Virus record (IMG/VR): IMGVR_UViG_3300045450_000252
Location: 13,534 to 77,533 of that record
Reading direction: 5' to 3' (one strand)
Source: a virus
Lineage: Duplodnaviria; Caudoviricetes
DNA: 64,000 nt
The position numbers and the translations under genes were made by a program. The notes under the pieces are model-generated. The model had not been told where the DNA came from. It worked only from the letters and a program-made list of their open reading frames with translations, and did no database searches. Shown here one piece after another: positions 1,822-51,055 of the stretch. The stretch's first letter is position 1; each line of letters opens with the position of its first letter.

Positions 1822-3479
1822 GCGCCCAGAACGTAAAAACGAAACCGCTGCACTTCAACCGGCCCCAGATGCGGTTTTTGGTCACGCTGATGATGTCGGC
1901 CGTGAGCATCTGGGGCCGGGCCACGGGTAAGTCGTCGCTCATTGCCTGGCTGATGCACCTGATAGTGCAGAACCTGCCCCGCAGCGCCTGGGCGCTGTGC
2001 GGGCAGACCTATCAGCAAATCCTGACCCGCACGCTGCCCTCGACGATTGCCTCGCTCGAGCGCATCGGCTACTTCCAGGACGTGCACTACGTCATCGGGG
2101 TAAAGCCGCCCAAGCACTTTGCCCGGCCCTTCGAGCCGCCGCAGACCTGGGGGCATACCATCTGCTTTGCCAATGGCACGGCCTTTCACCTGATTTCGCT
2201 CGACGGGGGCGGAGGCAGCGCCCGCGGCCTGAACCTGGACGGGGTGCTGGCCGACGAGTCGCTCACGCTCAACCGCGAGAAGTTCGACGACGAGGTGCTG
2301 CCCGCCAACCGGGGCAATGAGCGCCAGGCCTGGAGCGGGCACCGCCTGCACCACGGCGTATTTCACTTCACGTCCATGCCCTACGGCAACCAGGGCAAGT
2401 GGCTGCTGGAGGGCAGCAAGCACTACCAGGAAAACGGGAAGGACTACGAGGCGCTCAGCCGCGAGCTCGTGCGCCTCCAGCTGCGCTACATCGACAACAA
2501 GGACCGCGAAACCCGGCGGGCCGTGTGGGAGGATATCCAGCAGCTTACGCGCCAGCTGCGCTACTACGTCGATGGCGATGGCCAGCTCTATAGCGAGGCC
2601 AACGTGTTCGAGAACCTCACCAACGTCGGTATCCGCTACCTGGAGCAGCTGCGCCGCCTGCTCACCGACTTCACCTTCCGGGTGGAGGTGCTCAACCAGC
2701 GCCCTCTGGCCGTGGAGGCGGGCTTTTATCCCACGCTCGACACGGCCAAGCACAGTTACGAGGCCTTCAACTACAGCCACCTGGAGGGCGAGAACTTCAG
2801 CGCGGCCCGGCTGAAGCGCCTGAGCGAGTTTCCCGATAGTCGGCAGGATGCCGATTGCGACGCCACGCTGCCCCTGCGCATCGCGGCCGACTGGGGCAAG
2901 GCCTCGTTCATTACCGTGGCCCAGGTGCACGCCAAGGTGCGGGAGTATCGCTTCCTCAAGGGCTTCTACGTCAAGCACCCGCAGCTCATTCGCCACCTGG
3001 CCAAGCTCTTCACCGACTACTACGCCCACCACCTGATTAAGCGCGTCGTCTTTATCGAGGATGCTGAGTATGGCAACAGCCGCAACCCCAACAGCGAGGA
3101 AACCTACAACCAGGAGTTCTGCCGCCTGCTGCGCGAGGCGGGCTGGAAGGTGGAAGTGAAGAAGCTCGGCCGCGTGCCGGGCTACCGCACGCGCTACCTG
3201 CTGGCCCACGAGCTGCTGGCCGAGCTCGACTCCGCCCAGCCCCGCCTGCGCTTCAACAAGTACCACTGCAAGGAGGTGCTGCTGGCCATGCAGATGACCG
3301 AAATCCGGCAGGGCAAGAATGGTATTGAGAAGAACAAGACCAGCGAGAAACTCAAGAGCGTGCCGGCCGAGGAGGCCCCGCACTTCACCGATACCTTCGA
3401 CCTACACCTGCTCAGCATCGACGACACGCTCATCAAGCCCACGGCCGACTTCAGCGGCTTCGTGATGCTCACGAGCTGA
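1818..3479 (+). CDS. terL: Terminase large subunit
   Basis: Walker A WGRATGKS, Walker B VLADES, C-terminal nuclease with AADWG and late acidic residues. Confidence 0.88.
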   Translation: MSAQNVKTKPLHFNRPQMRFLVTLMMSAVSIWGRATGKSSLIAWLMHLIVQNLPRSAWALCGQTYQQILTRTLPSTIASLERIGYFQDVHYVIGVKPPKHFARPFEPPQTWGHTICFANGTAFHLISLDGGGGSARGLNLDGVLADESLTLNREKFDDEVLPANRGNERQAWSGHRLHHGVFHFTSMPYGNQGKWLLEGSKHYQENGKDYEALSRELVRLQLRYIDNKDRETRRAVWEDIQQLTRQLRYYVDGDGQLYSEANVFENLTNVGIRYLEQLRRLLTDFTFRVEVLNQRPLAVEAGFYPTLDTAKHSYEAFNYSHLEGENFSAARLKRLSEFPDSRQDADCDATLPLRIAADWGKASFITVAQVHAKVREYRFLKGFYVKHPQLIRHLAKLFTDYYAHHLIKRVVFIEDAEYGNSRNPNSEETYNQEFCRLLREAGWKVEVKKLGRVPGYRTRYLLAHELLAELDSAQPRLRFNKYHCKEVLLAMQMTEIRQGKNGIEKNKTSEKLKSVPAEEAPHFTDTFDLHLLSIDDTLIKPTADFSGFVMLTS

Positions 3480-3701: not shown

Positions 3702-3749
3702 CGAGGCCCGCCGCAGGAGTCCTGATAGGGTAGTTGTCGGCTTTTTTGT

Positions 3750-4136: not shown

Positions 4137-5467
4137 TGTCTGTTCACGTTACCCCCGACCTCTCCTTTGGCTACGTGGACGGTCTCGGCGCGCTCGTGCG
4201 CACCGGTGCCGGCAGCCAGGGCGCGCCCGGCGCTGCTGCCGCCGTCTCGCTCACCAAGCAGAGCAGCGGCAGCAGCGACGTGGCTTTCTGGGGGCCGGAT
4301 AACGGCTTTCCGCAACAGGTAGTGGCCGATGCCGAGGCCAACACGTCGCTGGCCACCATGCTCAACTGGAAAGCCAAGGCCTGGTACGGCGGCGGCCTCT
4401 GCTACGGCCTGGTGAGCTACGACGAGGCCGGCGAGGAAGTCTTCAAGCAGGTGCGCCTGCCGCAGGTCGAGGAGTTCAGCCGCCGCTCCAACCTGGCCCG
4501 CTACGCGATGGAGGCCCTCATCGACATCAGCTGGTTCGGCCAGGCCTTCCCGGAGCTGATTCTGACCCGCAACCGCCAGGAAATCTACTCGGTGTCGGCC
4601 CTCGATACCACCTGGTGCCGCTACGCCAAGGCCAAACGGCCGCAAGACCTGATGAAGCAGGTGTACTACAACGCCAACTGGACGACTGGCGGCCGCTTCG
4701 ACGACGAGTACTGCACCCGCCTACCGGTGCTCGACCCCTACTATGACGCCGTGGCCGGCCTGAAGGCCCGCACCGACGGCTTCAGCTACGTCTACCCCAT
4801 AGCTTTTCCCTCGCCGGACAAATCGGAATACCAGCTCGCCAGCTGGAATACCGTGCGCCGGTCGGGCTGGCTCGACATCGGCCGGGCGGTGGTCGAGTTC
4901 AAGAAGATGCTGCTCAAAAACATCCTCAACATCGAGTGGATGATTGAGATAAACCCGGCCTACTGGCACTGGAAATACAAGGATTGGGACGAGAAAACCG
5001 ACGACGAGCGGCGCACGCTCATGGCGGCCGAGTTGAAGAATTTTGGCGACGTGATGACGGGAAGTAACGGGGCCGGCAAGTCCCTGATGACCACTACCGT
5101 CAAGGATAGCGCGGGCAACGACGTGGCCGCCTTCAAGGTCACGGCGCTCGACAAAAAAATGAAGGAGGGCCTCTTCAACGAGGACTCGCAGGAGTCAGCC
5201 AGCCACGTGTTCACCGCCGGCGGCGTGGCCCCCACGCTGATGGGCATCCAGCCGGGCAAAAACATGGGGGCCGGCAGTGGGAGCGACGCCCGGGTGGCCT
5301 TCAACAACTTCATCAGCACGAGCACTTTCGAGCAGCACCTGGTGCTGGAGGTGCTGCACTTCATCCGCGACTACAACGGCTGGCCCGAAAACCTGGAGTT
5401 CCGCTTCAAACAGCCCCTCATCATGACCCTGGACAAGGGCAAGCAAACTCAACAGCAGACCTCCTGA
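4136..5467 (+). CDS. Portal protein
   Basis: 443 aa after terL; WGPDNxFPQ and GSGSDxRVAF motifs; homolog of 46439-47806. Confidence 0.75.
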   Translation: MSVHVTPDLSFGYVDGLGALVRTGAGSQGAPGAAAAVSLTKQSSGSSDVAFWGPDNGFPQQVVADAEANTSLATMLNWKAKAWYGGGLCYGLVSYDEAGEEVFKQVRLPQVEEFSRRSNLARYAMEALIDISWFGQAFPELILTRNRQEIYSVSALDTTWCRYAKAKRPQDLMKQVYYNANWTTGGRFDDEYCTRLPVLDPYYDAVAGLKARTDGFSYVYPIAFPSPDKSEYQLASWNTVRRSGWLDIGRAVVEFKKMLLKNILNIEWMIEINPAYWHWKYKDWDEKTDDERRTLMAAELKNFGDVMTGSNGAGKSLMTTTVKDSAGNDVAAFKVTALDKKMKEGLFNEDSQESASHVFTAGGVAPTLMGIQPGKNMGAGSGSDARVAFNNFISTSTFEQHLVLEVLHFIRDYNGWPENLEFRFKQPLIMTLDKGKQTQQQTS

Positions 5468-5472
5468 GTCCT

Positions 5473-6471
5473 ATGGCCACTCTCCTTATCGCCAATATCG
5501 ACGAGTTCAAGCAGCACGTCGCCCTCAACGCCTCGACCGACGAGGATTACTTCGCCCTGCTCCAGCCCGACCTGCTGCTGGCCGAGCACGACCACCTGCG
5601 CCCCGCCCTGGGCGAGGACTTCTTCGACGAGCTGCTCGCCGCCGCCTCGGCCGAGGCCACCGAGCTGCGCCGGCTGCTGGCCTTCTCGCTGGCCAACCTC
5701 ACGATGGTGTCGTTTCTGGACGTGGCCCAGGTGCAAATCAGTGGGAGCGGGGTGCAGATTATCAGCACCGACCACGAGAAAACGGCCTTCCAGTGGCAGA
5801 TAAACGCCCTCAAGGCCAACCTGAGCCGCAAGGGCTTCAACGGGTTGGAAAAGGCGCTGGCCTACCTGGAGCGGCACGCAGCCGACTTCCCCACCTGGGC
5901 CAGCTCCGAAACCGCCCAGCGCGCCCGGGGGCAGTTTATCGCCACGGCCAGCGAGTTCTCGACCTACTACAACATCAGCAACGCCCGCCTCACCTTCCAG
6001 GCCCTGGCCTCGCTGCTGCCCAAAACCGAGAGCTTCCGGCTGGCCCCCGCCCTGGGCGCTGACTTCTTCGAGGAGCTGAAGCAGCAGCTGCGTACCGCCA
6101 CGCTCACGCCCGAAAACGAGCAGCTCGTCACCGGTTACCTGCGCCCGGCGCTGGCCCACCTCACGATGGCGCAGGCCATCGGCGAGCTGGGTTTCAGCCT
6201 CAACGGCCAGAACCTGGAGCTCAACGTCTACCGCTTCGACGACAGCAACAGCAAGGAGTCCGACCCGGGCCTGACGCAGCTGCTCGACATGAAGGCTGGC
6301 CAGGCCCTGCACGATGGCGAGCGCTACCTGCGCCGCCTCGTCACGCACCTCAACGCCACGGCATCCGCCACCCGCTACGCCACCTACTTCGCCAGCCCCA
6401 CCTACGCCGCGCCGGCTGTGCCCAACTATCACACCACGAGCGCTTCCGCGCCACTTTTTCTAGGTTTTTAA
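5473..6471 (+). CDS. DUF6712-like protein, probable head-tail adaptor
   Basis: Follows portal; internal two-fold repeat (PALGxDFFxEL); homolog of 47806-48831. Confidence 0.6.
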   Translation: MATLLIANIDEFKQHVALNASTDEDYFALLQPDLLLAEHDHLRPALGEDFFDELLAAASAEATELRRLLAFSLANLTMVSFLDVAQVQISGSGVQIISTDHEKTAFQWQINALKANLSRKGFNGLEKALAYLERHAADFPTWASSETAQRARGQFIATASEFSTYYNISNARLTFQALASLLPKTESFRLAPALGADFFEELKQQLRTATLTPENEQLVTGYLRPALAHLTMAQAIGELGFSLNGQNLELNVYRFDDSNSKESDPGLTQLLDMKAGQALHDGERYLRRLVTHLNATASATRYATYFASPTYAAPAVPNYHTTSASAPLFLGF

Positions 6472-6472
6472 G

Positions 6473-6820
6473 ATGGCTGAGAATACAACCGATAAAATCG
6501 AAATCAGCCAGCAGCAGACCCGTAACTGGATACTCGTGGGCGTGGTGGCCTTCCTCATGCTGCTCGTGCAGGGCCTCTACACCTTCGCCATCAACAGCAC
6601 CGGCACCGAGCTGCGCGAAACTAACCGCAGCCTCGTCGAACTGCTGAGCACGGTAAAGGTGCACCAGGCCCAGCTGGACTATCAGCGCTCCGAAATCGCC
6701 GAGCTCAAGCAGGCCCGCAAGGATGCCGAGGCCACGCACAAGCTCCTCGACACCCGCCTTAACTCAGTCGAGCAGCGCGCCGCCCTGCACGACCAATGGA
6801 TTCAAGCCCACAACCACTAA
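6473..6820 (+). CDS. Membrane protein, N-terminal TM plus coiled coil (holin/antiholin-like)
   Basis: One hydrophobic helix then a heptad-rich region; first gene of the lysis cassette. Confidence 0.6.
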   Translation: MAENTTDKIEISQQQTRNWILVGVVAFLMLLVQGLYTFAINSTGTELRETNRSLVELLSTVKVHQAQLDYQRSEIAELKQARKDAEATHKLLDTRLNSVEQRAALHDQWIQAHNH

Positions 6821-6839
6821 CCTTTTTTCAATCCCCTCC

Positions 6840-7247
6840 ATGCGCGCCTTCCTGCACGACCGCAACCCCCAAAATCTGGCCTGGCCCCAGCTGCTCTACG
6901 GCTGGCTGCTTCGCCACAACGAGCTACACCTGGCGGCGCTGCTCATGCTGCTGTGGTACCCCATCCAGCTGGCCTTTGCGTGGTACTTCCCCGACGCGGC
7001 CCCACTGAGCTCGACCCAGCTGCACAAGGTGCTGCTCACGGCCCTGGTCTTCGCCTTCGCCCACGGCTACCTCTGGCTGGGCCTGCGCTTCAACCTGCCC
7101 ATCATCCCGCGCTGGCTGAAAAAGAACTTTACCACCACCTTCTTATCCCTTACCCCGTGGCAAAAAATGCAGTTTTTCGCGTTCTTGTGGTCGGCCTATT
7201 TGCTCTGCTTTGCCATCATGTGGCATGGAGCGAGCCAGGCCGCCTAG
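6840..7247 (+). CDS. Probable holin, 135 aa multi-TM
   Basis: Several hydrophobic helices, directly upstream of the endolysin; ATG at 6840; 128/135 identical to 49142-49549. Confidence 0.7.
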   Translation: MRAFLHDRNPQNLAWPQLLYGWLLRHNELHLAALLMLLWYPIQLAFAWYFPDAAPLSSTQLHKVLLTALVFAFAHGYLWLGLRFNLPIIPRWLKKNFTTTFLSLTPWQKMQFFAFLWSAYLLCFAIMWHGASQAA

Positions 7248-7738
7248 CGCCCGCGCCGCCCTCACCGGCTGTCCGCCAGGCCAACGCCCGGCGCATCCTC
7301 GACTGGGAGCGCTCGCAGCTGCCCGTACGCGAGCACGGCTACAATCGCGGCCCCGAGGTCGAGAGCTACCAGCGCACCACCGGCAACGCGCCGGGCAGCG
7401 AGTGGTGCGGCTCGTTCCAAGCCACGGCCAACGCCCGCTGTGGGCTGCCTTTCCCTACGGCGGCCGGCGGCGCACGCTACTGGTTTCTGCTCACGAGCCC
7501 GCGCACCCTGTTTTTCCTGGGCGTGGTGGGCAGCGTGGAAGCCATCGAGCCCGGCGATAGGGTAGGGTTCTGGAGCCCCAGCGCCCGGCGCATCGGCCAC
7601 ATCGGTATCGTCGAGGCGAAGACCCGGCACGGCTTCACCACCATCGAAGGCAACACCGGCCGCCAGGCCAACGCCGGCGTGCACCGCCTCAGCCGGGGCC
7701 GGGGCGAAATCCACGCTGCTTCCAACTGGAGCTACTGA
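7157..7738 (+). CDS. CHAP-domain endolysin with N-terminal signal/SAR-like helix
   Basis: EWCGSF, GHIGIV and TIEGNT CHAP motifs; GTG start at 7157 matches the 49459 copy. Confidence 0.82.
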   Translation: MAKNAVFRVLVVGLFALLCHHVAWSEPGRLAPAPPSPAVRQANARRILDWERSQLPVREHGYNRGPEVESYQRTTGNAPGSEWCGSFQATANARCGLPFPTAAGGARYWFLLTSPRTLFFLGVVGSVEAIEPGDRVGFWSPSARRIGHIGIVEAKTRHGFTTIEGNTGRQANAGVHRLSRGRGEIHAASNWSY

Positions 7739-7740
7739 CC

Positions 7741-8109
7741 ATGAAAAACCGCTACCTCTTTGCCCTGCTCCTTGTGGCCAGCAGCTGCGAAACCACCCAG
7801 TACATTCCCGCCGCCGTCGATGCCAAGGTGGACTCGACCCTGCGCGCCGCCGGCATCGGCCCGCTCCAGGCCGGCAAAATCAAGATTGCCGGCAACGTCA
7901 TTATAAATACCGGCCCGGGCGAGGTGCAGGTGGCCGACAACCGCAAGGCCGGCCAGAAGCAGGGCAGCGCCGCCACCGGCCCGGCCAGCCAGGCCGCGAC
8001 CACGGCCAGGAACACGGGCCAACCGTGGCTGGCCTTTGCCGTGGTGGCCGTAGTAGGCCTGGCTGCCGGAGCCTGGCTGCGCGGCCAGCTGCCCCGCCTG
8101 CCGTTTTAA
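7741..8109 (+). CDS. Probable unimolecular spanin
   Basis: Lipobox ASSC, beta-rich middle, C-terminal TM helix; last gene of the lysis cassette. Confidence 0.65.
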   Translation: MKNRYLFALLLVASSCETTQYIPAAVDAKVDSTLRAAGIGPLQAGKIKIAGNVIINTGPGEVQVADNRKAGQKQGSAATGPASQAATTARNTGQPWLAFAVVAVVGLAAGAWLRGQLPRLPF

Positions 8110-8132
8110 CCGCCAGTAGACGCTAACCACCC

Positions 8133-8199
8133 AGCCCGCCGGCCCTGCCGGCGGGCTTTTTTCTGTCCTTTCAGACCGGTAATTACCAGGGGAATTTCG
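8133..8199 (+). promoter_or_regulatory. Terminator followed by late-promoter motif with GGTAATTACC in the spacer
   Basis: Hairpin plus T-run 8133-8162; GTCCTTT 8165-8171, N24, TTCG 8196-8199. Confidence 0.7.
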
Positions 8200-8220
8200 G
8201 GGCAAATCACCCTATTCCCC

Positions 8221-9021
8221 ATGCTCGACGCGCAATTTGGCCGGTATCGCCGCCGGCTGGCCACCACCTGGAACGAGCTCACCGGCGCGCAGCTGCTGGC
8301 CGTGGTGGCCCTGCGCCAGCGCCCGCCCGCCCAGCCGGCGGCGCTGGCCGATGCCCTGCTGGCCATCCTGCTCGACCTGCCCGCCCGGTCCTTCGCCCGC
8401 CTCACCGTGGTGCAGCGCGTGGAGCTGCGCCCCCGCGTCCGGTTCCTGGCCACCACCGCCCCGGCGCTCACGGCCCAGCTGCTGCCCGAGCTCACGCTGC
8501 CCTTCCTGCGCTTCATCGAGGAGCCCCAGCGCTTCTACGGCCCCCGCGAAGCCTTCCGCAACCTGCGCTTCGACGAGTTCATCTTCGCCGATACCTACTA
8601 CCTGCGCTACCTCCAGACCCAGCAAGCCAGCTGGCTCGACCAGCTCGTGGCCGTGCTCTACCGCCCCGAGCGCCGGCCCTACCGCCCCCGGGCCGTGGAC
8701 TACGCCGGCGACCGGCGCGAGGACTTCAACGAGCACCTCGTGGCCGCCCGGGCCGCCCGGCTGGCCCACCTGCCACTGGCCACCAAGCTCGCCGTGCTGC
8801 TCTACTACCAGGCCTGCCGCCGGCTGCTCGAGCAGCGCTACCCCTACGTCTTCAGCGACGACACCACCCAGCAGGCCGGCACCGGCGGCTGGCAGGAGGT
8901 GCTGCACGAGCTGGCCGGCGGCGTGGTGCACCTCGAAGACACCGCCCACCAGGCGCTGCACAACGTGCTGCGCGAAATGAACCGCGTGCTGCGCCAGCAC
9001 GCCGAACGTCAACCCGCCTGA
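8221..9021 (+). CDS. Tail-region hypothetical protein (chaperone-like)
   Basis: Homolog of 51668-52483 (TWxEL, FxEFIFADT, LYRP). Confidence 0.7.
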   Translation: MLDAQFGRYRRRLATTWNELTGAQLLAVVALRQRPPAQPAALADALLAILLDLPARSFARLTVVQRVELRPRVRFLATTAPALTAQLLPELTLPFLRFIEEPQRFYGPREAFRNLRFDEFIFADTYYLRYLQTQQASWLDQLVAVLYRPERRPYRPRAVDYAGDRREDFNEHLVAARAARLAHLPLATKLAVLLYYQACRRLLEQRYPYVFSDDTTQQAGTGGWQEVLHELAGGVVHLEDTAHQALHNVLREMNRVLRQHAERQPA

Positions 9022-9034
9022 TTTCTGCTTACTT

Positions 9035-9580
9035 ATGCTTAATCAAACGACTTACTCCGAGCTGCTGCGCGACCTGGCTACGCGCCACGTGGACATTCGG
9101 CACAGCACCGCGCCCAAGGGCTGCCGCTACCAAAAGGTACTTGTGGCCGCCGACCCCATCCAGAAGCAGCTCAACCTGGCCAGCTTCTACGACAAGGCCA
9201 AAGCCAGCTGGCCCGGTACCGCCTCCTTCCTGCTGCAACTGAGCTACGATACGCTCTACGAGGATACCGGCAGCGACCAGGTACTGGCCCATCGCCGGGG
9301 CGGCTTTATTGTGCTGCACAAGGCCAAGGACACCGAGGAGAGCCGCGATGAAGTGCTGACCCGCACCGAGCGCATCGGCCACGAGCTCATGGCGGCCGTG
9401 TGCGATTTCTTCCGGGGGCCGGCCGGCCGGCGCGCCGGGCGCGTGCTCCAGCGCTCCAGCATCGCGGCCGATGCCGTCGGCCCCATCGGTGACAATTTCT
9501 ACGGCACCCGCTTCGAGTTCGACTTCACCGAGTCGGCCACGCTACTGCTGCAATTCAACCCCGCCAAATTCCTTCCTTAA
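9035..9580 (+). CDS. Tail-region protein (tail terminator-like)
   Basis: Homolog of 52476-53009 (VGPxGDxxYGTRFxF). Confidence 0.6.
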   Translation: MLNQTTYSELLRDLATRHVDIRHSTAPKGCRYQKVLVAADPIQKQLNLASFYDKAKASWPGTASFLLQLSYDTLYEDTGSDQVLAHRRGGFIVLHKAKDTEESRDEVLTRTERIGHELMAAVCDFFRGPAGRRAGRVLQRSSIAADAVGPIGDNFYGTRFEFDFTESATLLLQFNPAKFLP

Positions 9581-9582
9581 TT

Positions 9583-11628
9583 ATGGCCGGCGAATACTAC
9601 GCACGCATAACCATCCAGGTCGCGCTCAGTTACGACGACAAGCTGCGTGCCACCCAGACCATTTCGGCCGGCTTCCTGCTGGCGGGGCAGTGGCAAACGT
9701 TTTACCGGGGCGGCAATGCCGGGCAGTTTACCGTGCCCGACCCCAACGACGTGGGCGACGAGTACGTGATGCAGGCCGTCAAGAGCCTGCTGGGCGTGCT
9801 CGGGCAGCGCATCTACAGCCTGGGCCTGCCCTACGTGGTGAGCGAGCCCCGCAAGGCGGGCACCGTCAACGAAACCGTGAACGCGGGGAGCTCTACCCTC
9901 GTGCTGCCCATCCCCGTGGTCGAGTTCGACATCACGGCCACCGACTACGGCCGGCAGTACAACCTCGACTTCCGGCCGCACACCACCAGCGGCTTTGCCA
10001 TCAGCCAGAATCAGGGCAGCGTTTCGCCCATTACGGCCACGGACGCCGTCACGCACGCCACCGTGTTCGGTCGGGCTGATGGGGCCATCACCGTCACGGC
10101 CAGCGGCGAGGCCCTGCCGGGCAGCCCCTTTTTTACCTACGCCTGGGACGATGGCTTTATCGGGGCCACCCGCACGCAGCTGCGCGCCGGGCTCTACGCC
10201 TGCACCGTCCGGTATAGCACCGGGGCCAGCACGCGCCTGGTGGTCGAGGTCAAGCAAGACCCCGCGCTCGTGGTGACGGTCACCAACACGCCCAACTCCA
10301 TCACCCTGCTCGTGAGCGGGGGCGTGGCCCCCTACGCCTACGCCTGGGCCGACGGCGACGTGACACCCGCCCGCACCAACCTGCCGGAGGGCACCTACCG
10401 GTGCGTGGTGACCGATGCCCACGGGGCGCAGGTGACGGTCGAGGTGGTGCTTTCCTTCAACAGCCGCTACTGGTTCGCGGGCAATCCCATCACGCTCAGC
10501 CTCGATGCCGGGCCGGCCTACCGCCTCGACCCCACCACCAAGCCCGGCCTGGGCTTCGTGTGCCAGGTCTGGGTCGAGCGGGAGTACCTGAGCGGCACCT
10601 TCGAGCCGGTGGGCCAAGAACTGGAGCAGCCCGCCGACGCCGCCGGCCGCACCACCTTCGAAGTGCAGGAGTTGCTCGAGCCCTTCGTGGCCCCCGTGGT
10701 GCCGGCCGTGGGCCAGGTCGCCGTGCAGCGCCAGGATGGCGCGTTCTGCCGCTTCTTCCTGCGCTACTTTGAGCGCACCGCGCTCGGCGACGGGGCCGTA
10801 ACTACCGTCAATACCAACTACCTGCTCACCGGCGGGCTCGACTACTGGGAGGCCGCGGTGGGCACGTGGTTCAACGGCTACCAACAGACGCACCTGCCCT
10901 TTCTGACGTGGGAGCCGGTGGTGAAAAAGGTGCTGCCCGACCAACCTGAGCACCTGTTTTTCATGCTCGTCACGCCCAACGTGGCCGCCTTCCGCTACCG
11001 CGCCCGCCTCACCTGGGCCGATGGCACCACTACCGAGGAGCTGCTGGCCGCCCGCGCTGGCCTGCTGCGCTACGAGGTGTTCTGCCTGCCCGCCGGCCCG
11101 CTCCAGCTCGACCTGCCATCGCGTGAGGCGCTGGCCGGCCAGCTCGTGGTGAGCTACGTGCTCGACGTGCTCGACGACGCGGGCCAGGCCCTGAGCGAGG
11201 CGCGCACCTTCGTGCTCGACCGCCGGCCCTGCCCCGTGCGCCGCTACTTTTTGTACACCAACTCGCTGGGCGGCTGGAATACGCTCGTGTGCCGGGGCCG
11301 GGCCTCGCGGGAGCTGGCCACCAGGACGAGCAGCAGCGAGAACGCCCGCGCCGCCGGCTACGACCCGCTGCGCGGCGAGCTGACCACCAGCCGGCGCACC
11401 GGTGCGCCGGTGCTCAAGTGCTACACCGGGCCACGCTCGGCCGGGCAGCTCGTGGCCGACAGCGACTTTATGCTCAGCGAGCGGGTGCTGCTGCTGGCCG
11501 GCGAGCGCTACCAGCCAGGCCAGGTGAAGGACCGCACCTACACGGTCTACGACGAGGACGAAACCCGGCGCGTGGTGCAGTTCGATTTCGAGCTGCCCCG
11601 CGAACGCTACCATACCCCCGCTTTATGA
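9583..11628 (+). CDS. Tail protein with two SprB-like repeats
   Basis: GxxPYxYxWxDG...L.xGxYxxxVTD repeats; homolog of 53012-55042. Confidence 0.7.
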   Translation: MAGEYYARITIQVALSYDDKLRATQTISAGFLLAGQWQTFYRGGNAGQFTVPDPNDVGDEYVMQAVKSLLGVLGQRIYSLGLPYVVSEPRKAGTVNETVNAGSSTLVLPIPVVEFDITATDYGRQYNLDFRPHTTSGFAISQNQGSVSPITATDAVTHATVFGRADGAITVTASGEALPGSPFFTYAWDDGFIGATRTQLRAGLYACTVRYSTGASTRLVVEVKQDPALVVTVTNTPNSITLLVSGGVAPYAYAWADGDVTPARTNLPEGTYRCVVTDAHGAQVTVEVVLSFNSRYWFAGNPITLSLDAGPAYRLDPTTKPGLGFVCQVWVEREYLSGTFEPVGQELEQPADAAGRTTFEVQELLEPFVAPVVPAVGQVAVQRQDGAFCRFFLRYFERTALGDGAVTTVNTNYLLTGGLDYWEAAVGTWFNGYQQTHLPFLTWEPVVKKVLPDQPEHLFFMLVTPNVAAFRYRARLTWADGTTTEELLAARAGLLRYEVFCLPAGPLQLDLPSREALAGQLVVSYVLDVLDDAGQALSEARTFVLDRRPCPVRRYFLYTNSLGGWNTLVCRGRASRELATRTSSSENARAAGYDPLRGELTTSRRTGAPVLKCYTGPRSAGQLVADSDFMLSERVLLLAGERYQPGQVKDRTYTVYDEDETRRVVQFDFELPRERYHTPAL

Positions 11629-13118
11629 CCGGCTTCTTTATCCCCGCCGCCGGCGAGTGGCTCGACTTTGCCGGCACCATCGGGCTCGAAATCCGCAGCC
11701 CCCTGTTCGACTTTGGCTCCATCCCGGGCGTACTCAGCTACCCGGTTTCCTTCGCTGACTCGCCCGCCAACCGCCGGCTGCTGGCCTTTCCGGCCGTGCG
11801 CGCCCGGCGCGCCGGCCCGGTGCCGGCGGTGGAGGCCGACCTGTACATCGGCGGCAGCCTCTGGCGGCGCGGCGTGCTTCAGTATAAGGACTTTGATTCG
11901 GACAAAGGCGAGTACAGCTACCAATTTCAGGCCGACGCCGACGCCCTTGCCGGGCGCATCCAGGACGTGCTTTTGTCGGAGCTCGACCTGGGCACGCTGC
12001 CCGTGCAGTTGGTGCCCGAAACGGCCGATTACGTGCTGGCCCCGGTGCGCAACACGGCCTTTTATGATAAGGACAAGAACGCCGACTGGAACGGCGTAGT
12101 CAACTACTACGCCCTGGGCGCGGCCACCCCGGCCACCAATGCCGGCGCGGCCCACCGCTACGCCATTGTACCCCTGCTGAAGGTGGTGCCGCTGCTGCGG
12201 CGCTGCTTCGCCGCGTTCGGCTACGAGGTGAGCGGGGCCTGGCTCGACGATGCCGAAATTCAGCAGCTGGTGGTGTACGGCCGCACCGCGCTCGACGAGG
12301 CTACCGGCAGCGCCGTGGCCAGCCACTTTGACCTAGCCGCCTGCCTGCCCGACGTGCGCCTGGCCGAGCTGCTGCTCACGCTCCAGCAGCTCTTCGCCCT
12401 GGGCTTCGTGTTCAACCCGGTGCACCGGCGCGTGGACATCGTAGCCCTGCGCGACGTGGTAGCCCGCCCCGGCTACGTGACCCGTACGCCGGGCCGCAGC
12501 TACCGCGACGTGGCCAGCGAGGTGGACGGCTTCACGCTCAGCTTCACGGCCGATACCGACGACGAGCTGCTCAAGTCGTCGGCCTGGCCCGCGTTCCCCA
12601 TCGGCGGGGGCAAGGAGAAAATCCAGCCGGCGGCCGATACGCTACGCATGGTGCGCGAGGCCGACCCGCCGGCCGTGCGGCAGTGGCTCGTGCCGGCGGC
12701 CGAGCAGGCCGGGCAGTCGGCCCGCACCGACTTCGAGCAAACCGACGTGCGCGCCAGCCAGCTACGGTTCCTGTTTTACCGGGGCCTCCAGCCCGACTCG
12801 ACGTCGCACGAGTACCCGCTGGCCAGCGCCGGTACCGTCAACGCCCGCGGCGTGACGGTGGGACAGTACGCCCTGGAGTGGGGCGGCCCGGCCGGCCTCT
12901 ATGCCCAGTGGCATAAGCCCTGGCTCGACTTTCGGGCCAACGCCCGCCTCGAGGAGCGCCCGGTGAACCTGACGCTGGGCGAGTTTCTCAGCCTCGACCC
13001 CACGCGCAAAGACTTGGTGCAGGGGCTCAAGTTTTTCTGGGAGAGCATCAGCCTCACCGTGGGCGGCACCCAGACGCTGGAGCCGGCCACCATTACCTAC
13101 CACCAGGTAGCCCGCTAG
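11625..13118 (+). CDS. Tail/baseplate hub-like protein
   Basis: ATG at 11625 overlaps the previous stop; homolog of 55039-56520. Confidence 0.65.
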   Translation: MTGFFIPAAGEWLDFAGTIGLEIRSPLFDFGSIPGVLSYPVSFADSPANRRLLAFPAVRARRAGPVPAVEADLYIGGSLWRRGVLQYKDFDSDKGEYSYQFQADADALAGRIQDVLLSELDLGTLPVQLVPETADYVLAPVRNTAFYDKDKNADWNGVVNYYALGAATPATNAGAAHRYAIVPLLKVVPLLRRCFAAFGYEVSGAWLDDAEIQQLVVYGRTALDEATGSAVASHFDLAACLPDVRLAELLLTLQQLFALGFVFNPVHRRVDIVALRDVVARPGYVTRTPGRSYRDVASEVDGFTLSFTADTDDELLKSSAWPAFPIGGGKEKIQPAADTLRMVREADPPAVRQWLVPAAEQAGQSARTDFEQTDVRASQLRFLFYRGLQPDSTSHEYPLASAGTVNARGVTVGQYALEWGGPAGLYAQWHKPWLDFRANARLEERPVNLTLGEFLSLDPTRKDLVQGLKFFWESISLTVGGTQTLEPATITYHQVAR

Positions 13119-42643: not shown

Positions 42644-43311
42644 GTACCTCCTTGCCTTCTGTAACTGATTTGCCCGGTGCCGACCAAGTGCCTCTGCCCA
42701 GCTCCACGGCCATTGAGCGCATCTACGCGGCCTACATCGAGAACACGCTCTCGCAGCTCAACGCGGCCGATAAGACCACCCATGCCGAGCTGGAGGCGGC
42801 CTACGCTTTGATTCTCAACTACCACACCTTTGAGCAGGCCTGGCCCCTGCTGGCCCGGCAGTTTGAGCTGAGCCGGGCTTCTTGCTACCGCCGCCTGGCT
42901 GACTCGCAAAACCTGTTTGGCGACCTCAAAAAAGTCAAGAAGGAGGGACGCCGGACGGTGCTGGCGGATTTCGCCCGCAAGTTGCTCCAACTCTGCCTGG
43001 GCCAGCGCCCACCCGACGTGAAGGGCGCGCTGGCGGCCATGAAATTTGAGGCCAACCTTACGGGCCTGCTGCGGGCCGATGCCCACGGCGAGGAGGGCAC
43101 CGGCGGGGTAGGAGCGACCACTTACATCATCAATTTGCAGGTGCAGGGCCGCAAGGCCCGGCCCATCGACATTCACAAGCTCGACGACATTTCCGATGCC
43201 GATTATGAGCTGGTGCAGGAGGCCGTGGCCAGCCAGGTGTTCGGGGCCACTGCGATGGAAGTCATGCTCGCTGACCGCCGGGCCTTGGAGGAAGGGGGGG
43301 CGGCGTCGTGA
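42640..43311 (+). CDS. Probable terminase small subunit (HTH)
   Basis: LARQFELSRASCYRRL HTH; overlaps terL. Confidence 0.6.
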   Translation: MSTSLPSVTDLPGADQVPLPSSTAIERIYAAYIENTLSQLNAADKTTHAELEAAYALILNYHTFEQAWPLLARQFELSRASCYRRLADSQNLFGDLKKVKKEGRRTVLADFARKLLQLCLGQRPPDVKGALAAMKFEANLTGLLRADAHGEEGTGGVGATTYIINLQVQGRKARPIDIHKLDDISDADYELVQEAVASQVFGATAMEVMLADRRALEEGGAAS

Positions 43312-45008
43312 GCCTCATCGACCGGGTACAACTCGACTTCAACCAGGCCCAGCTGCGCTACGTCACGGCCCGGGGCACCAAGGAGGGCATCAGCATCTGG
43401 GGCCGGGGCACGGGCAAGTCCAGCATCATTGCCTGGGACATGCACAAAATCGTGACCACCATGCCCCGCTCGTGCTGGGTGATTGTGGGCTCGACCTACA
43501 AGCAGGTGCTCACCCGCACGTTGCCCTCCACGGTGGCCAGCCTCGAGCGCCTGGGCTACAAGCTGGGCCGCGATTTCTACATCGGCCGCAAGCCGCCGCC
43601 CTCCCAAAACTGGGAGCATCCCTTTCAGGGGCCGCTGAGCTACGACCACTTCATCATTTTTCGCAATGGCACGGGCTTTCACCTGGTGAGCCTGGATGCC
43701 GGGGGCTCGGCCTCGCGGGGCCTGAACGTGGATGGCTTTATCGGTGACGAGGCCCTGCTCTTCGATAAAAATAAGCTCGACGCCGACCTCTCGGCCACCA
43801 ACCGGGGCAACGGCCAGTACTTCGGCAAAAACCCCATGCACCACGGCGTTTTTCTTTTCAGCTCGATGCCCTGGGGCGACCAGGGCCGCTGGCTGCTGGA
43901 TAAGGCCAAATACTATGAGAATGAGGGTATAGACCTCGTGGAGCAGCGCCGCGAGCTGCTCGATGCCCAGGTGCGCTTTCTGGACGCCAACAGCGAGGGC
44001 GACGAGGCCATGCTGGCCATCTGGCGCGACGAGGTGGTGCCCTTGCTTCAGAAGGTGCAGTTTTTCCCGTCCAAGGCGCAGCGCGGCACTTTCTACTCGG
44101 AGGCCAACGCCTTTGACAACATCCGGAACCTGGGCTTGCAGTACTTGCTTGACCAGCGCCGGTTTATGACCGATTTTACGTTTCAGATTGAGATGATGAA
44201 CCGCCGGCCTACGACGGTCAAAAACGGCTTTTACCCCCGGCTCAACCAGGCCGTGCACGTGCAGGAGTGCGCCGCCGACGACACGCTGCTGGGCCTGGTC
44301 GACGAGCAGGGCCTGGGCCACCACCTCAAGCTGCTCAAGGGCCTGGTGGACAAGCCCGACTCGCGCCTCGATAGCGATTGCCGCTCGCACCAGCCCCTGC
44401 GCATCTCGGTGGACTTTGGGGCGCGCATCACTACCTGCTGGGTGGGCCAGCCCCACCGCGACGTGGGCGAGTATCGCCACCTGGGTGGCTTCCACGTCAA
44501 GTTTCCCGCCTTCATCGACGAGTTGGTGGGTAATATCTGCGAGTACTACCGCTACCACCTGCGCCGCGAGGTGGAGTTTCTCTCCGACGAGGAGTACGGT
44601 GACGCCCGCCGGCCCGACAGTGAGTTTACGCTCAACGAGCGCTTCATGCGGGCCTTCCTCAAGCGGGGCTGGCGCATTCAGCGCTTCGGGCTGGGCCGCA
44701 TCCCAGGCCACCCCACGCGCTACATGCTAGCCCATGACCTGCTCGCCGAGGACGACCCCAAGCTGCTGCGCCAGCGCTTCAACAAGGAGCGCTGCAAGGA
44801 CGGCATCACGGCCATGCTGCTGGCCCCGGTTAGTCAGGACAGCAAGGGCCGCATCAAAAAGGTGAAAACCAGCGAGCAGAAGGAGAGCTTCCCCGCCGAG
44901 CACGCCACCCACTACACCGACAACATCGACCTGCATTTCCTCTCCTGCGGCACCGATATCGTCAACGCCTCGGTGGACTTCAGTCAGTTGGGGGTGTTTA
45001 GCACGTAA
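43308..45008 (+). CDS. terL: Terminase large subunit
   Basis: WGRGTGKS, FIGDEA and SVDFG. Confidence 0.88.
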   Translation: MSLIDRVQLDFNQAQLRYVTARGTKEGISIWGRGTGKSSIIAWDMHKIVTTMPRSCWVIVGSTYKQVLTRTLPSTVASLERLGYKLGRDFYIGRKPPPSQNWEHPFQGPLSYDHFIIFRNGTGFHLVSLDAGGSASRGLNVDGFIGDEALLFDKNKLDADLSATNRGNGQYFGKNPMHHGVFLFSSMPWGDQGRWLLDKAKYYENEGIDLVEQRRELLDAQVRFLDANSEGDEAMLAIWRDEVVPLLQKVQFFPSKAQRGTFYSEANAFDNIRNLGLQYLLDQRRFMTDFTFQIEMMNRRPTTVKNGFYPRLNQAVHVQECAADDTLLGLVDEQGLGHHLKLLKGLVDKPDSRLDSDCRSHQPLRISVDFGARITTCWVGQPHRDVGEYRHLGGFHVKFPAFIDELVGNICEYYRYHLRREVEFLSDEEYGDARRPDSEFTLNERFMRAFLKRGWRIQRFGLGRIPGHPTRYMLAHDLLAEDDPKLLRQRFNKERCKDGITAMLLAPVSQDSKGRIKKVKTSEQKESFPAEHATHYTDNIDLHFLSCGTDIVNASVDFSQLGVFST

Positions 45009-46438: not shown

Positions 46439-47806
46439 ATGCAGCAACTGGTATTTGCCGGCAACGGCACCGCCTACCACCGGGGCCTGGGCGCGGCCGT
46501 GCGCCTGGGCGGTGCCCTGGCCGCCAGCGGCAGCAGCCGCACCGGGCCGATTCTCGCCGGCGGGGCCACGCCCTCGGCCCCGGTCGATAAGGGAGCCACG
46601 GCGGGCGTGGTGGCCCCGTGGGGGCCGGGCAACGACTGGCCGCAGCAGGTGCTGGCCGCCCTGGCCAAGAGCACCATTCTGTACCCGGTGCTGGATTGGA
46701 AAAACCGCGCCGTGTACGGCAGCGGCATCGTCTACGGCAAGGTTAGCGGCTATAAGCCGGACGGCTCCGAGATTTTTCAGCCCGTTAAAGACCCGGTACT
46801 GCGCGAGTTTTTCCGGCGCAGCAACCTGGAGCGCTACGGCTTCGAGGGCTTGCAGGGCCTGCTCTACTTCGGCCAGGGCTTTCCCGAGCTGATTCTCAGC
46901 AACGACCGCAGCCAGATTACGAGCGTCACCATCCAGGACGCGCCCTTCTGCCGCTACGCCACCCAGCAGCCGGGCCAGGCCCTGCCGCCGCACGTGTACA
47001 TCTCGGCTGGCTGGCCGGATGCCCGGCCCGGCGACGGCTACACCGAGCAAGTGCCCACGCTCGACCCCTACTACAGTGACATCGAGCACCTGCGGGCCGA
47101 CAAGCGCGGCTTCAAATACATCTGGCCGCTCTCGGTGTCGAGCCCAGGTAACGCGCTCTACCAGGTGCCGGCCTGGAGCGTCATTCTCAAGTCGCGCTGG
47201 TTCGACGTGGCCCTGGCCGTGCCCGAATTTAAGAAGCAGCTCTTCGATAACCAGCTCTCCATCAAGTACCTTATTGAGGCCGACGTGCGCTATTGGGAGT
47301 GGAAATACCCCAGTTGGAAGGATAAGAAGGACGAGGAACGCAAGCGCATCATCGCCGAGGAGCTGGATGCCTTCGAGAAGACGATGGCCGGCACGGCGGG
47401 CGCGGGCAAGACGCTGCTGAGCGTGACTATGCCCGACCCCACCGACCCGAGCAAGACGATTAAGGTGTTCACCATCACGGCCATCGACGACAAAATCAAG
47501 TCGGGCCTCTACATCGAGGACTCGCAGGAGGCGGCCAGCCACTTCTACACTGCCCTGCAGGTAGACGCTACCCTGGCCGGCGTATCGCCCGGCAAGGATA
47601 TTGGGTCGGGGAGTGGCTCGGACAAGCGGGTGGCCTTCAACGTGTTCGTGGCTACCCATAGCTTCTACCAGTCGCTGCTGCTGGAGGTGCTCAACTTCAT
47701 CCGCGACTACAACGGCTGGGACCCCGACCTGGAATTCCGCTTCCTCGTGCCACAGGTCAACACGGCCGATGCCAGTAAGGAAACCAACAAAAAAGCTGAC
47801 GGCTAA
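46439..47806 (+). CDS. Portal protein
   Basis: WGPGNDWPQ and GSGSDKRVAF; homolog of 4136-5467. Confidence 0.75.
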   Translation: MQQLVFAGNGTAYHRGLGAAVRLGGALAASGSSRTGPILAGGATPSAPVDKGATAGVVAPWGPGNDWPQQVLAALAKSTILYPVLDWKNRAVYGSGIVYGKVSGYKPDGSEIFQPVKDPVLREFFRRSNLERYGFEGLQGLLYFGQGFPELILSNDRSQITSVTIQDAPFCRYATQQPGQALPPHVYISAGWPDARPGDGYTEQVPTLDPYYSDIEHLRADKRGFKYIWPLSVSSPGNALYQVPAWSVILKSRWFDVALAVPEFKKQLFDNQLSIKYLIEADVRYWEWKYPSWKDKKDEERKRIIAEELDAFEKTMAGTAGAGKTLLSVTMPDPTDPSKTIKVFTITAIDDKIKSGLYIEDSQEAASHFYTALQVDATLAGVSPGKDIGSGSGSDKRVAFNVFVATHSFYQSLLLEVLNFIRDYNGWDPDLEFRFLVPQVNTADASKETNKKADG

Positions 47807-50018: not shown

Positions 50019-50492
50019 ATGACCAGCAACTACACCCGCCCCCGTCGTTACGTGACCTTTCTCCTTCGCCTGTTCGCCCTACTAGCCGGCACTGCCCTGG
50101 TAGCCGGTACGCTGCCCAGCTGCGCCGGCAGCCAGGACGTGGCCGCGCTGCTCAGCCAGCCCCTCGACTCGACCATCCGCGCACAGGTAGCCCGCCAGGC
50201 TCCGACCGGTAAGGTCAAGCTCAAGGGCCACGTGACGATTCAGGTGGGCACCGGCAATGTCAGCGCGCCCAAGGCCCAAGCCCCGGTGGCCGCCGGGGCC
50301 AGCCAGGCCCAGGACTACACCAGGGCCGGTGCCCACGGCGGGGCACTGGCCACCGCGCCCCGCGCCTCGGCCGTGTCTACCACCCACGGCGGCGTGCCGC
50401 CCTGGCTGCTGGGCGCGGGCACAGTGCTCCTGGTGCTGGCGCTAGTAATCGGGCTGGTTTACAGGGTGCGTGCTAGGGTCTTTGGCCACTGA
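50019..50492 (+). CDS. Probable unimolecular spanin
   Basis: Lipobox LPSC and a C-terminal TM helix. Confidence 0.62.
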   Translation: MTSNYTRPRRYVTFLLRLFALLAGTALVAGTLPSCAGSQDVAALLSQPLDSTIRAQVARQAPTGKVKLKGHVTIQVGTGNVSAPKAQAPVAAGASQAQDYTRAGAHGGALATAPRASAVSTTHGGVPPWLLGAGTVLLVLALVIGLVYRVRARVFGH

Positions 50493-50527
50493 GTAACCTT
50501 GCCGCAGTGAGCCAATCTGATAAAAAG

Positions 50528-50562
50528 GCCCTTTTTTCGTGCGTTGGCCCGGCGTACCTTCG
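50528..50562 (+). promoter_or_regulatory. Late-promoter variant
   Basis: GCCCTTT-N24-TTCG with TACCTTCG as the -7 element. Confidence 0.55.
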
Positions 50563-50566
50563 CAGG

Positions 50567-50678
50567 GCAATCGTTACTGAAAAAATAAGCCGTTCACCCT
50601 GGCCATCGAACATACGGCCGGGGAGTAGGGGAGGAGTGTGACCTCCAAGCTAAGGGCGAACGGCTCAGTAGCGATTGC
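50567..50678 (+). ncRNA. Unclassified three-way-junction structured RNA
   Basis: 14-bp and 7-bp nested stems plus two hairpins with complementary loops. Confidence 0.55.
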
Positions 50679-50706
50679 AGCGATTTCCTCGGCTTGCTCG
50701 ATTACC

Positions 50707-50979
50707 ATGGCTAAGAACCACATGCCCACCGGTTTCGGCCGGACCCCGATGCCTAACGAGGCCGGCCAGAAGCCAAGTGTCAAGGAGTCTGAAAACGCCC
50801 CGCGCGAGGTGCCGCCGCCCTTAGTGGAGCCCCTGGCCATCGATGACGTGGAGCTCTACGAAATCCTCCAGCGCTACAACCTCCAACCCTTGGTGCCCCT
50901 GGCTAAGTTTGAGTATCAGCTCGTGGAGGTCATCGCTGCCCTCGAAAAACGGGTGCGGGAGCTAGACCCTGATTTGTAG
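50707..50979 (+). CDS. Hypothetical protein, 90 aa (moron)
   Basis: ATG at 50707 after the structured RNA; terminator 50989-51021. Confidence 0.6.
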   Translation: MAKNHMPTGFGRTPMPNEAGQKPSVKESENAPREVPPPLVEPLAIDDVELYEILQRYNLQPLVPLAKFEYQLVEVIAALEKRVRELDPDL

Positions 50980-51055
50980 TTTGAACAGGAACCCCGGTCC
51001 GACTACTGGGGTTCTTTTTTTACCTACACAGTACAGGCAAATCTCCTTAAACAGC

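Follow-up and report, generated by a model that had tools for sequence, protein, structure and literature searches.

Several kinds of structured RNA already described provide a frame for the element considered here. In the pseudoknot riboswitches (SAM-II, preQ1-II/III, fluoride and ZTP), a 3' tail near the start site pairs into the aptamer. The 5'-terminal stabiliser stem-loops, such as that of the ompA 5' UTR, leave no single-stranded 5' end, which is the requirement for blocking 5'-end-dependent decay. The leader of phage T4 gene 32 is a phage mRNA 5' pseudoknot tied to translational control, and the product of the gene binds an adjacent unstructured region. HK022 put and Bacillus EAR are cis-acting antiterminators, structured phage- or operon-borne RNAs located soon after a promoter, with terminators downstream, and phi29 pRNA is defined by intermolecular loop-loop complementarity. 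For Bacteroidota phages, as far as we are aware, descriptions of structured regulatory RNAs are few.

The DNA analysed here (the window, 64,000 nucleotides in full) belongs to a 77.5-kb IMG/VR provirus record that contains two related prophages, A and B, with a G+C content of about 65%. An RNA encoded in prophage B, immediately upstream from a small gene (orf90), is a member of a conserved, previously undescribed structured-RNA family found in Hymenobacter phages and prophages. This is a new RNA family within a known kind, the structured mRNA leaders, in which the competing helices are unusually clear. Like the pseudoknot riboswitches, it appears to be a cis-acting 5' UTR element with a 3' strand just upstream of the start codon that competes with or completes a local helix. 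It differs from them in having no match in Rfam 15, in junctions that are not the same in its two classes, and in that the usual masking of a ribosome-binding site does not apply, because Hymenobacter's phylum does not use Shine-Dalgarno pairing (PMC9723704); the predicted accessibility of the start site is the same in both states of the leader. In 40 of 42 copies the predicted +1 is the first base of helix P1, a point of resemblance to the ompA-type stabilisers, but the element is far more elaborate, with four helices, conserved junction bases and a covarying pseudoknot. The T4 gene 32 leader is likewise a phage mRNA leader with a pseudoknot; the Hymenobacter-phage leaders differ from it in that no protein domain is common to the ORFs behind class 1 RNAs. 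As for put and EAR RNAs, the likeness lies in the position of a structured RNA, between a nearby promoter and downstream terminators, and the differences lie in downstream operons that here have their own promoters, in an RNA tied closely to a start codon, and in a comparison, made via Rfam models only, that gave no match. phi29 pRNA is of similar size and also has a bulged helix and a junction with two hairpins, but its defining loop-loop complementarity is unconserved in the Hymenobacter-phage RNA, which is part of an mRNA in a phage with a conventional large terminase.

Genomic context

The RNA and orf90 lie in the structural module of prophage B (Table 1). The orf90 terminator is followed by the low-GC gene P0005 and then by a second terminator fused to a promoter cassette, after which come P0002 and tail-like genes. 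The G+C content of P0005 is below the phage level, the gene has no Pfam or PHROG match, and it is found in only some related loci, as partial matches only.

The gene order is the same in prophage A (window 4229-13100), except that the RNA, orf90 and P0005 are missing: the lipoprotein gene there leads through a terminator/promoter cassette directly to the P0002 homologue. The original prediction, made from the letters of the window, had stated that prophage A has no insert here, as is indeed the case. It had also placed the RNA inside a phage moron. In favour of this, the RNA-orf90 unit carries a promoter and a terminator of its own and is missing from prophage A; dozens of related phages, however, have it at the same syntenic position, and what varies here is the insert P0005, not the RNA-orf90 unit.

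Table 1. Features of the leader RNA, its downstream gene and the surrounding prophage B module (positions in the window).
Feature	Position	Strand	Remarks
Large terminase	43308-45008		Prophage B structural module
Capsid-like gene	46439-47806		Prophage B; followed by DUF6712 and three small genes
Lipoprotein gene	50019-50492		Prophage B; followed by the RNA, orf90 and a strong terminator (50987-51016)
-7 promoter box TACCTTCG	50555..50562	+	Bacteroidota sigma-A type (consensus TAnnTTTG); from family-wide position
P1, 5' strand	50567..50580	+	Begins at predicted +1; partner 50665-50678; 14 bp, one G-U
J1/2	50581..50588	+	A-rich 8-nt joining strand; no partner in fold
P2, 5' strand	50589..50599	+	GCCGTTC, mismatched A, and CCC able to lengthen P2; partner 50654-50664
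P2 core	50589-50595 / 50658-50664	+	7 bp; minimum-energy fold
First hairpin (P3) as originally drawn	50597-50604 / 50616-50623	+	Minimum-energy fold
P3 hairpin, inner 5' strand and loop	50600..50615	+	Stem kept; loop 6 to >20 nt
Shared strand GGCCGGGGAG	50616..50625	+	P3 3' strand, also pseudoknot 5' strand; covaries with linker at five positions
P4 hairpin GGAGG / CCTCC	50630..50646	+	Stem 50630-50634 / 50642-50646; 7-nt loop AGYRUGA conserved
P2, 3' strand	50654..50664	+	GGG, C, GAACGGC; pairs with 50589-50599
P1, 3' strand	50665..50678	+	Minimum-energy fold and covariation
Linker AGCGAT	50679..50684	+	Immediately 3' of P1; almost invariant in both RNA classes
Pseudoknot 3' strand TTCCTCGGCT	50685..50694	+	Complement of 50616-50625
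orf90 (P0004)	50707..50979	+	Translation; small acidic protein, N-terminal PIGFGR-type motif, C-terminal helix-loop-helix
Intrinsic terminator	50987..51023	+	Ends the RNA-orf90 unit; 12-bp GC-rich stem and T-run
P0005	51056-51571		Low-GC gene, 171-aa ORF with own terminator, 3' of orf90 terminator

Fold and distribution of the RNA family

The minimum-energy structure of the 112-nt RNA at 50567-50678 is exactly the fold drawn in the original prediction, and P1, the 8-nt A-rich bulge, P2 and the two hairpins were all found in place. Its energy is -55.4 kcal/mol, compared with -30.8 +/- 3.3 kcal/mol for dinucleotide shuffles (z = -7.46, 0 of 200 shuffles equal). The fold had been assigned to no Rfam family, and this was borne out by a scan of the whole window against Rfam 15, with zero matches at the gathering score and nothing overlapping 50528-50706 at E <= 10; the same scan of five homologous loci gave nothing overlapping the RNA at E <= 1. 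The Rfam 'Thr_leader' and NsiR1 matches that were seen are terminators elsewhere, away from the RNA. A tRNA/tmRNA scan found none, and a search of the literature on Hymenobacter or phage RNA motifs returned nothing relevant.

Homologues were collected from IMG/VR, metagenomes and Hymenobacter genomes. Searching IMG/VR with orf90 yielded ten loci, seven of which have the RNA upstream, with obvious compensatory changes. A pattern of the conserved core found more copies in IMG/VR and metagenomes, plus nine named Hymenobacter genomes (strains identified at this step include Hymenobacter pini BT728, H. humi JCM 19635, H. psychrotolerans DSM 18569 and H. rubidus DG7B); four chance pattern matches (L013, L017, L019 and L029) were dropped on inspection. 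A covariance model (R1) matched 29 of 151 Hymenobacter genomes and a broader model (R2) matched 31 of the 151, with up to four copies of the RNA per genome. A family-level sample of 151 genomes added one further genome, its genus not given, and an order-level sample of 151 added no genome beyond those from the Hymenobacter search. The final alignment (A7) holds 53 distinct copies, and some tests used 42 copies. MAG contigs labelled Janthinobacterium lividum (L024; P0008, P0017, P0019, P0025, P0046 and P0068) carry the Hymenobacter-type phage module, with the same gene order and a capsid-like protein that is 80% identical, which suggests that these contigs are mis-binned or mislabelled.

All 53 homologues share the orientation of the flanking structural genes, and an ORF follows the RNA in all of them except two deletion derivatives. 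The site, between the head genes and P0002, is the same in the copies of class 1, which have conserved unpaired bases in the junction and loops (AGUAGAG, AGYRUGA and an A-rich J1/2); J1/2 varies in length across the family and stays A-rich. A variant class (class 2: L065-L069, L077 and L083-L087) is found in another phage lineage, at a site after the head protease and a capsid-like gene. These RNAs have kept the architecture and the pseudoknot described below, but their junction and loop sequences differ (GAGCGUG, UGCAAGU).

Covariation and functional strand

In the alignment of 53 copies, 96.7% of the cells are paired; shuffles give 75%, and sliding the partners by 1-3 columns gives 37-46%. 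Both sides have changed in 27 of the 36 pairs; the alignment was fitted to P1-P4 by the covariance model, so that these pairing statistics favour that structure. Changes on both sides are seen in 10 of the 12 modelled pairs of P1 (97.6% of cells paired), all seven core pairs of P2 covary, and three of the five stem pairs of P4 do so (GC/CG, GC/AU) with 100% of the cells paired. Covariation among collected homologues, which had been proposed as a check on P1 and P2, supports both helices, and P4 and the inner part of P3 likewise. G-U and U-G pairs number 237, compared with 18 A-C and C-A mismatches, and the functional molecule is therefore an RNA, read from the + strand.

A pseudoknot in competition with a hairpin

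The original prediction missed the main conserved tertiary feature of the RNA, a pseudoknot between the linker and P3. The linker at 50685-50694 is complementary to 50616-50625, made up of the P3 3' strand and two bases of the junction, in a duplex of -16.4 kcal/mol; the family consensus of this linker strand is UUCCCCGGCU, and the window copy reads UUCCUCGGCU. Pairing of this helix is complete (100%) in 42 copies and reaches 99.4% in 53, in an alignment that is unbiased towards it because the pseudoknot is absent from both covariance models. Compensatory replacements have turned C-G into U-A or A-U (two positions), A-U into U-A or G-C (one position) and G-C into A-U (two further positions), and there are matched one-base insertions (GGGGAA with UUCCCC). 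On a rough tree of about 150 columns, built without the pseudoknot columns, the variable pseudoknot positions show a minimum of 6-9 changes of pair state. In independent contrasts on this tree, the linker partner co-changed with the shared strand in about 10 of 11 cases; for the hairpin partner the figure is fewer than 1 of 8. Watson-Crick pairing with the pseudoknot partner is found for 13 of the 16 variants of the shared strand; with the hairpin partner, four variants form Watson-Crick pairs and 11 form wobbles.

The P3 hairpin and the linker pseudoknot are mutually exclusive, with at least five bases in common, and both have compensatory support. The P3 hairpin is real as well: its stem is kept despite loop variation, its top pair flips from U-A to A-U in 5-6 copies from several lineages, and its inner pairs are compensated in L024 and L088. 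Only part of the first hairpin as originally drawn is retained here, namely the inner P3 stem; the outer CCC/GGG more likely belongs to an extended P2, and GGGGA to the pseudoknot. A bulge-free extension of P2 into CCY is possible in 37 of 52 copies, with the compensatory variants GCCC/GGGC, GCCU/AGGC, ACUU/AGGU and GCUU/AAGC, and this extension leaves GGGGA free for the linker. The pseudoknot state was estimated to lie 5.4 +/- 2.5 kcal/mol below the hairpin state with the pseudoknot penalty excluded, so the two states would be nearly isoenergetic. We infer that the leader alternates between hairpin and pseudoknot forms, and favour this over the other possibility, a static fold in which a shorter P3 stacks on the pseudoknot. 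A further helix around the linker (GCAGC/GCUGC) was rejected; it is common, yet missing in the window and in several copies, and no compensatory change was seen by eye.

The two hairpin loops had been proposed to pair with each other (CAUAC/GUGUG). Such pairing is possible in the window copy but is not conserved: across the family, the positions concerned are 64.1% paired, compared with 64.7% in shuffles, and the loop-loop pairs show no covariation (0 pairs changed on both sides). The analogy with phi29 pRNA that had been drawn from the complementary loops falls with this unconserved contact.

Promoter, predicted transcription start and terminators

Of 42 distinct copies, 40 have a TAYCTTYG box at -12..-5, counted from the first base of P1. 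The sigma-A -7 box of Flavobacterium, TAnnTTTG, has the same -12..-5 geometry (PMC9723704; see also PMC7366714), and the first base of P1 is therefore the predicted +1, at which transcription would start. The proposal that the fold begins at the transcription start agrees with this: the TTCG of the window copy ends at 50562 and P1 runs from 50567, and the position of the box holds family-wide. A sigma-70 promoter scan found none, as expected for Bacteroidota.

The window contains six 'late' terminator-promoter cassettes (at 3749, 8164, 38170, 41986, 46005 and 51628), each composed of a T-run, TGTCCTTT, a spacing of 20-22 nt and a TTCG-type box. The leader promoter was originally regarded as a copy of this late promoter, which holds in part. 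It shares the TTCG -7-like box and the spacing of the six cassettes, but it lacks TGTCCTTT 20-22 nt upstream. An ATG at the fifth base after TTCG, which had been reported for three other copies, is present at two cassettes (41986 and 51628), not three. An ATG in this position would make these two late mRNAs leaderless, and leaderless mRNAs are reported to be rare in Bacteroidota, at 3.7-5.5% (PMC7366714, PMC9723704).

In most homologues, a strong GC-rich terminator lies just upstream of the -7 box. The window has AAAAAGGCCCTTTTTT at 50523-50538, which looks like a collapsed remnant of such a terminator hairpin, and there may be read-through from the lipoprotein gene into the window RNA. A terminator similar to that of orf90 is located 3' of the ORF in most homologous loci, and none was found between the RNA and the ORF.

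Proteins encoded downstream from the RNA

The original prediction left a choice between a leader for the ORF at 50707-50979 and a stand-alone RNA. The position of the -7 box, the covariation of four helices and the short, fixed distance to the ORF agree on the leader. The pseudoknot 3' end lies 5-22 nt from the AUG (mode 15, in 40 copies), and the RNA does not stand alone, in that the linker pairs back into the fold and the ORF follows without an intervening terminator.

There are 76 homologues of orf90, all unnamed ('hypothetical'). The protein has no Pfam or PHROG match; its AlphaFold model has a pLDDT of >95 over residues 40-90, and Foldseek gave nothing at E <= 0.001 against PDB and BFVD. 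A wide structural search reached a top Z of 4.6, and the best ESM Atlas value, 0.83, is at noise level. The proteins encoded behind class 1 RNAs belong to one family, in which a C-terminal helix-loop-helix is predicted with confidence; an N-terminal PIGFGR motif and an acidic, proline-rich linker are present in some of them and missing in others. Three kinds of ORF are found behind these RNAs: the full protein, the C-terminal domain alone, and the fusion at L079:1637-2044, a 136-aa ORF in which an orf90-like PIGFGR motif and acidic linker are joined to an unrelated C-terminal domain. The PIGFGR motif behaves as a portable N-terminal tag and might, speculatively, serve to target head-module proteins. 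Since the class 1 loci have no protein domain that they all share, control by the encoded protein is unlikely. Class 2 RNAs precede an unrelated family of proteins of 72-110 aa.

The association of the RNA with the ORF has been broken in both directions. At L061:1501-1720 and L064:1400-1621 the ORF is deleted and the RNA runs directly into the terminator; the L061 RNA is intact and that of L064 has lost P3. Given these two loci, an ORF-independent role of the RNA is possible. Three loci (L003, L006 and L011, at about 2780-3000) have orf90 homologues without the RNA, where the upstream context differs and the ORF directly follows another coding region; the protein can thus do without the leader.

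Proposed role and alternative explanations

With moderate confidence, we regard these RNAs as a new family of cis-acting, pseudoknotted, possibly bistable 5' leaders that would govern mRNA stability or translation. The fold, the family, its covariation and strand, the promoter geometry and the link to ORF and terminator were computed; to these, the model adds an inferred transcription start, two-state behaviour and an effect on stability or translation. A sigma-A-type -7 box would start transcription at the first base of P1, such that the 5' end of the mRNA is buried in a helix of 12-14 bp. The leader would fold as a multi-helix junction composed of P1, a long P2, the P3 hairpin and P4, and its 10-nt linker would pair with the P3 3' strand, in a pseudoknot whose end lies some 15 nt upstream of the AUG of a small phage ORF. 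During transcription, the hairpin form would be made first and the pseudoknot form second, from the same bases and with similar stability. Folded in this way, the leader may protect the transcript from 5'-end-dependent decay and may set ribosome initiation on the ORF, possibly as a switch. Simple masking of the start codon is not supported: in nearest-neighbour modelling, positions -12..+15 have unpaired probabilities of 0.56 (hairpin state) and 0.58 (pseudoknot state; p = 0.07). Accessibility being alike in both states, any effect on initiation would be steric or kinetic.

Several other explanations can be weighed against such a leader. A long intergenic inverted repeat might be expected of a DNA-level element (a MITE end, a recombination or packaging site) or might be a chance palindrome, but the probability of this is negligible: the 77.5-kb record holds a single copy of the RNA, the syntenic place and the orientation are always the same, compensatory changes keep the pairing and not the sequence, and the strand-asymmetric wobble pattern, which fits only a + strand RNA, rules it out. 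It is also very improbable that the RNA is a packaging RNA of the phi29 pRNA type, multimerising on the portal via complementary loops. The long bulged helix, the multi-helix junction and two hairpin loops able to pair in one copy recall such a molecule, but the loop pairing is at shuffle level and does not covary, no Rfam model matched (that of pRNA included, if the library has one), the phage encodes a large terminase, and the covarying pseudoknot fuses the RNA to the ORF. An independent ncRNA, acting in trans or, in the manner of put and EAR, on the polymerase by terminator read-through, would make the proximity of the ORF secondary. The location of the RNA immediately after a promoter, the strong terminators within 300-1000 bp, ahead of the tail genes, and the intact RNA with a terminator and without any ORF at L061 would all suit this explanation. 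It is nevertheless unlikely, given that the downstream tail genes have their own terminator/promoter cassette (window 51628, also L005), that prophage A would express its tail genes without the RNA, that the linker strand of the pseudoknot stays close to the AUG in 40 copies, and that the second ORF-less copy, without P3, looks like decay following ORF loss.

Two further explanations accept the link between RNA and ORF and assign the control to a ligand or to the encoded protein. In a riboswitch, the junction would bind a small molecule and so choose between P3 hairpin and pseudoknot, thereby setting ORF expression; a pair of helices that exclude each other, both backed by compensatory changes and a few kcal/mol apart, would be well suited to this, as would the highly conserved unpaired junction and loop bases of class 1. 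However, class 2 keeps the architecture with a different junction and different loops, which makes a single small-molecule pocket unlikely, all copies are located in phage structural modules before small proteins and never before metabolic or transport genes, and no Rfam riboswitch matched; a riboswitch is thus rather improbable. It is quite unlikely, too, that the leader is an operator to which the encoded small protein binds, repressing or activating its own translation. The tight RNA-ORF link and the switch of RNA class with ORF family would be consistent with such an operator, and the C-terminal helix-extended loop-helix weakly and non-significantly resembles LEM/HeH nucleic-acid-binding folds, but such fold matches do not rise above noise (E > 2, Z <= 4.6) and class 1 RNAs precede three ORF kinds with no domain common to all. 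The cis-acting leader is therefore the explanation preferred here. A more specific form of it, a bistable phage switch in which the first-made hairpin is displaced by the linker pseudoknot on a signal that the infected cell provides (for example a host factor, a small molecule, temperature or transcription speed), is put forward tentatively, as a possibility that we consider doubtful.

Significance for Bacteroidota and their phages

Translation control in Bacteroidota is poorly understood because these bacteria do not rely on Shine-Dalgarno pairing. A leader of about 145 nt with more than 50 natural variants and two competing helices constitutes a compact system for the control exerted by mRNA leaders in such bacteria. 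The RNA is a new family for RNA databases, and several cultured Hymenobacter type strains carry it. The leader family also offers a route to the role of the small, modular head-module proteins encoded behind the RNA. If the bistable switch proved true, it would time these proteins in a phylum without Shine-Dalgarno-based control.
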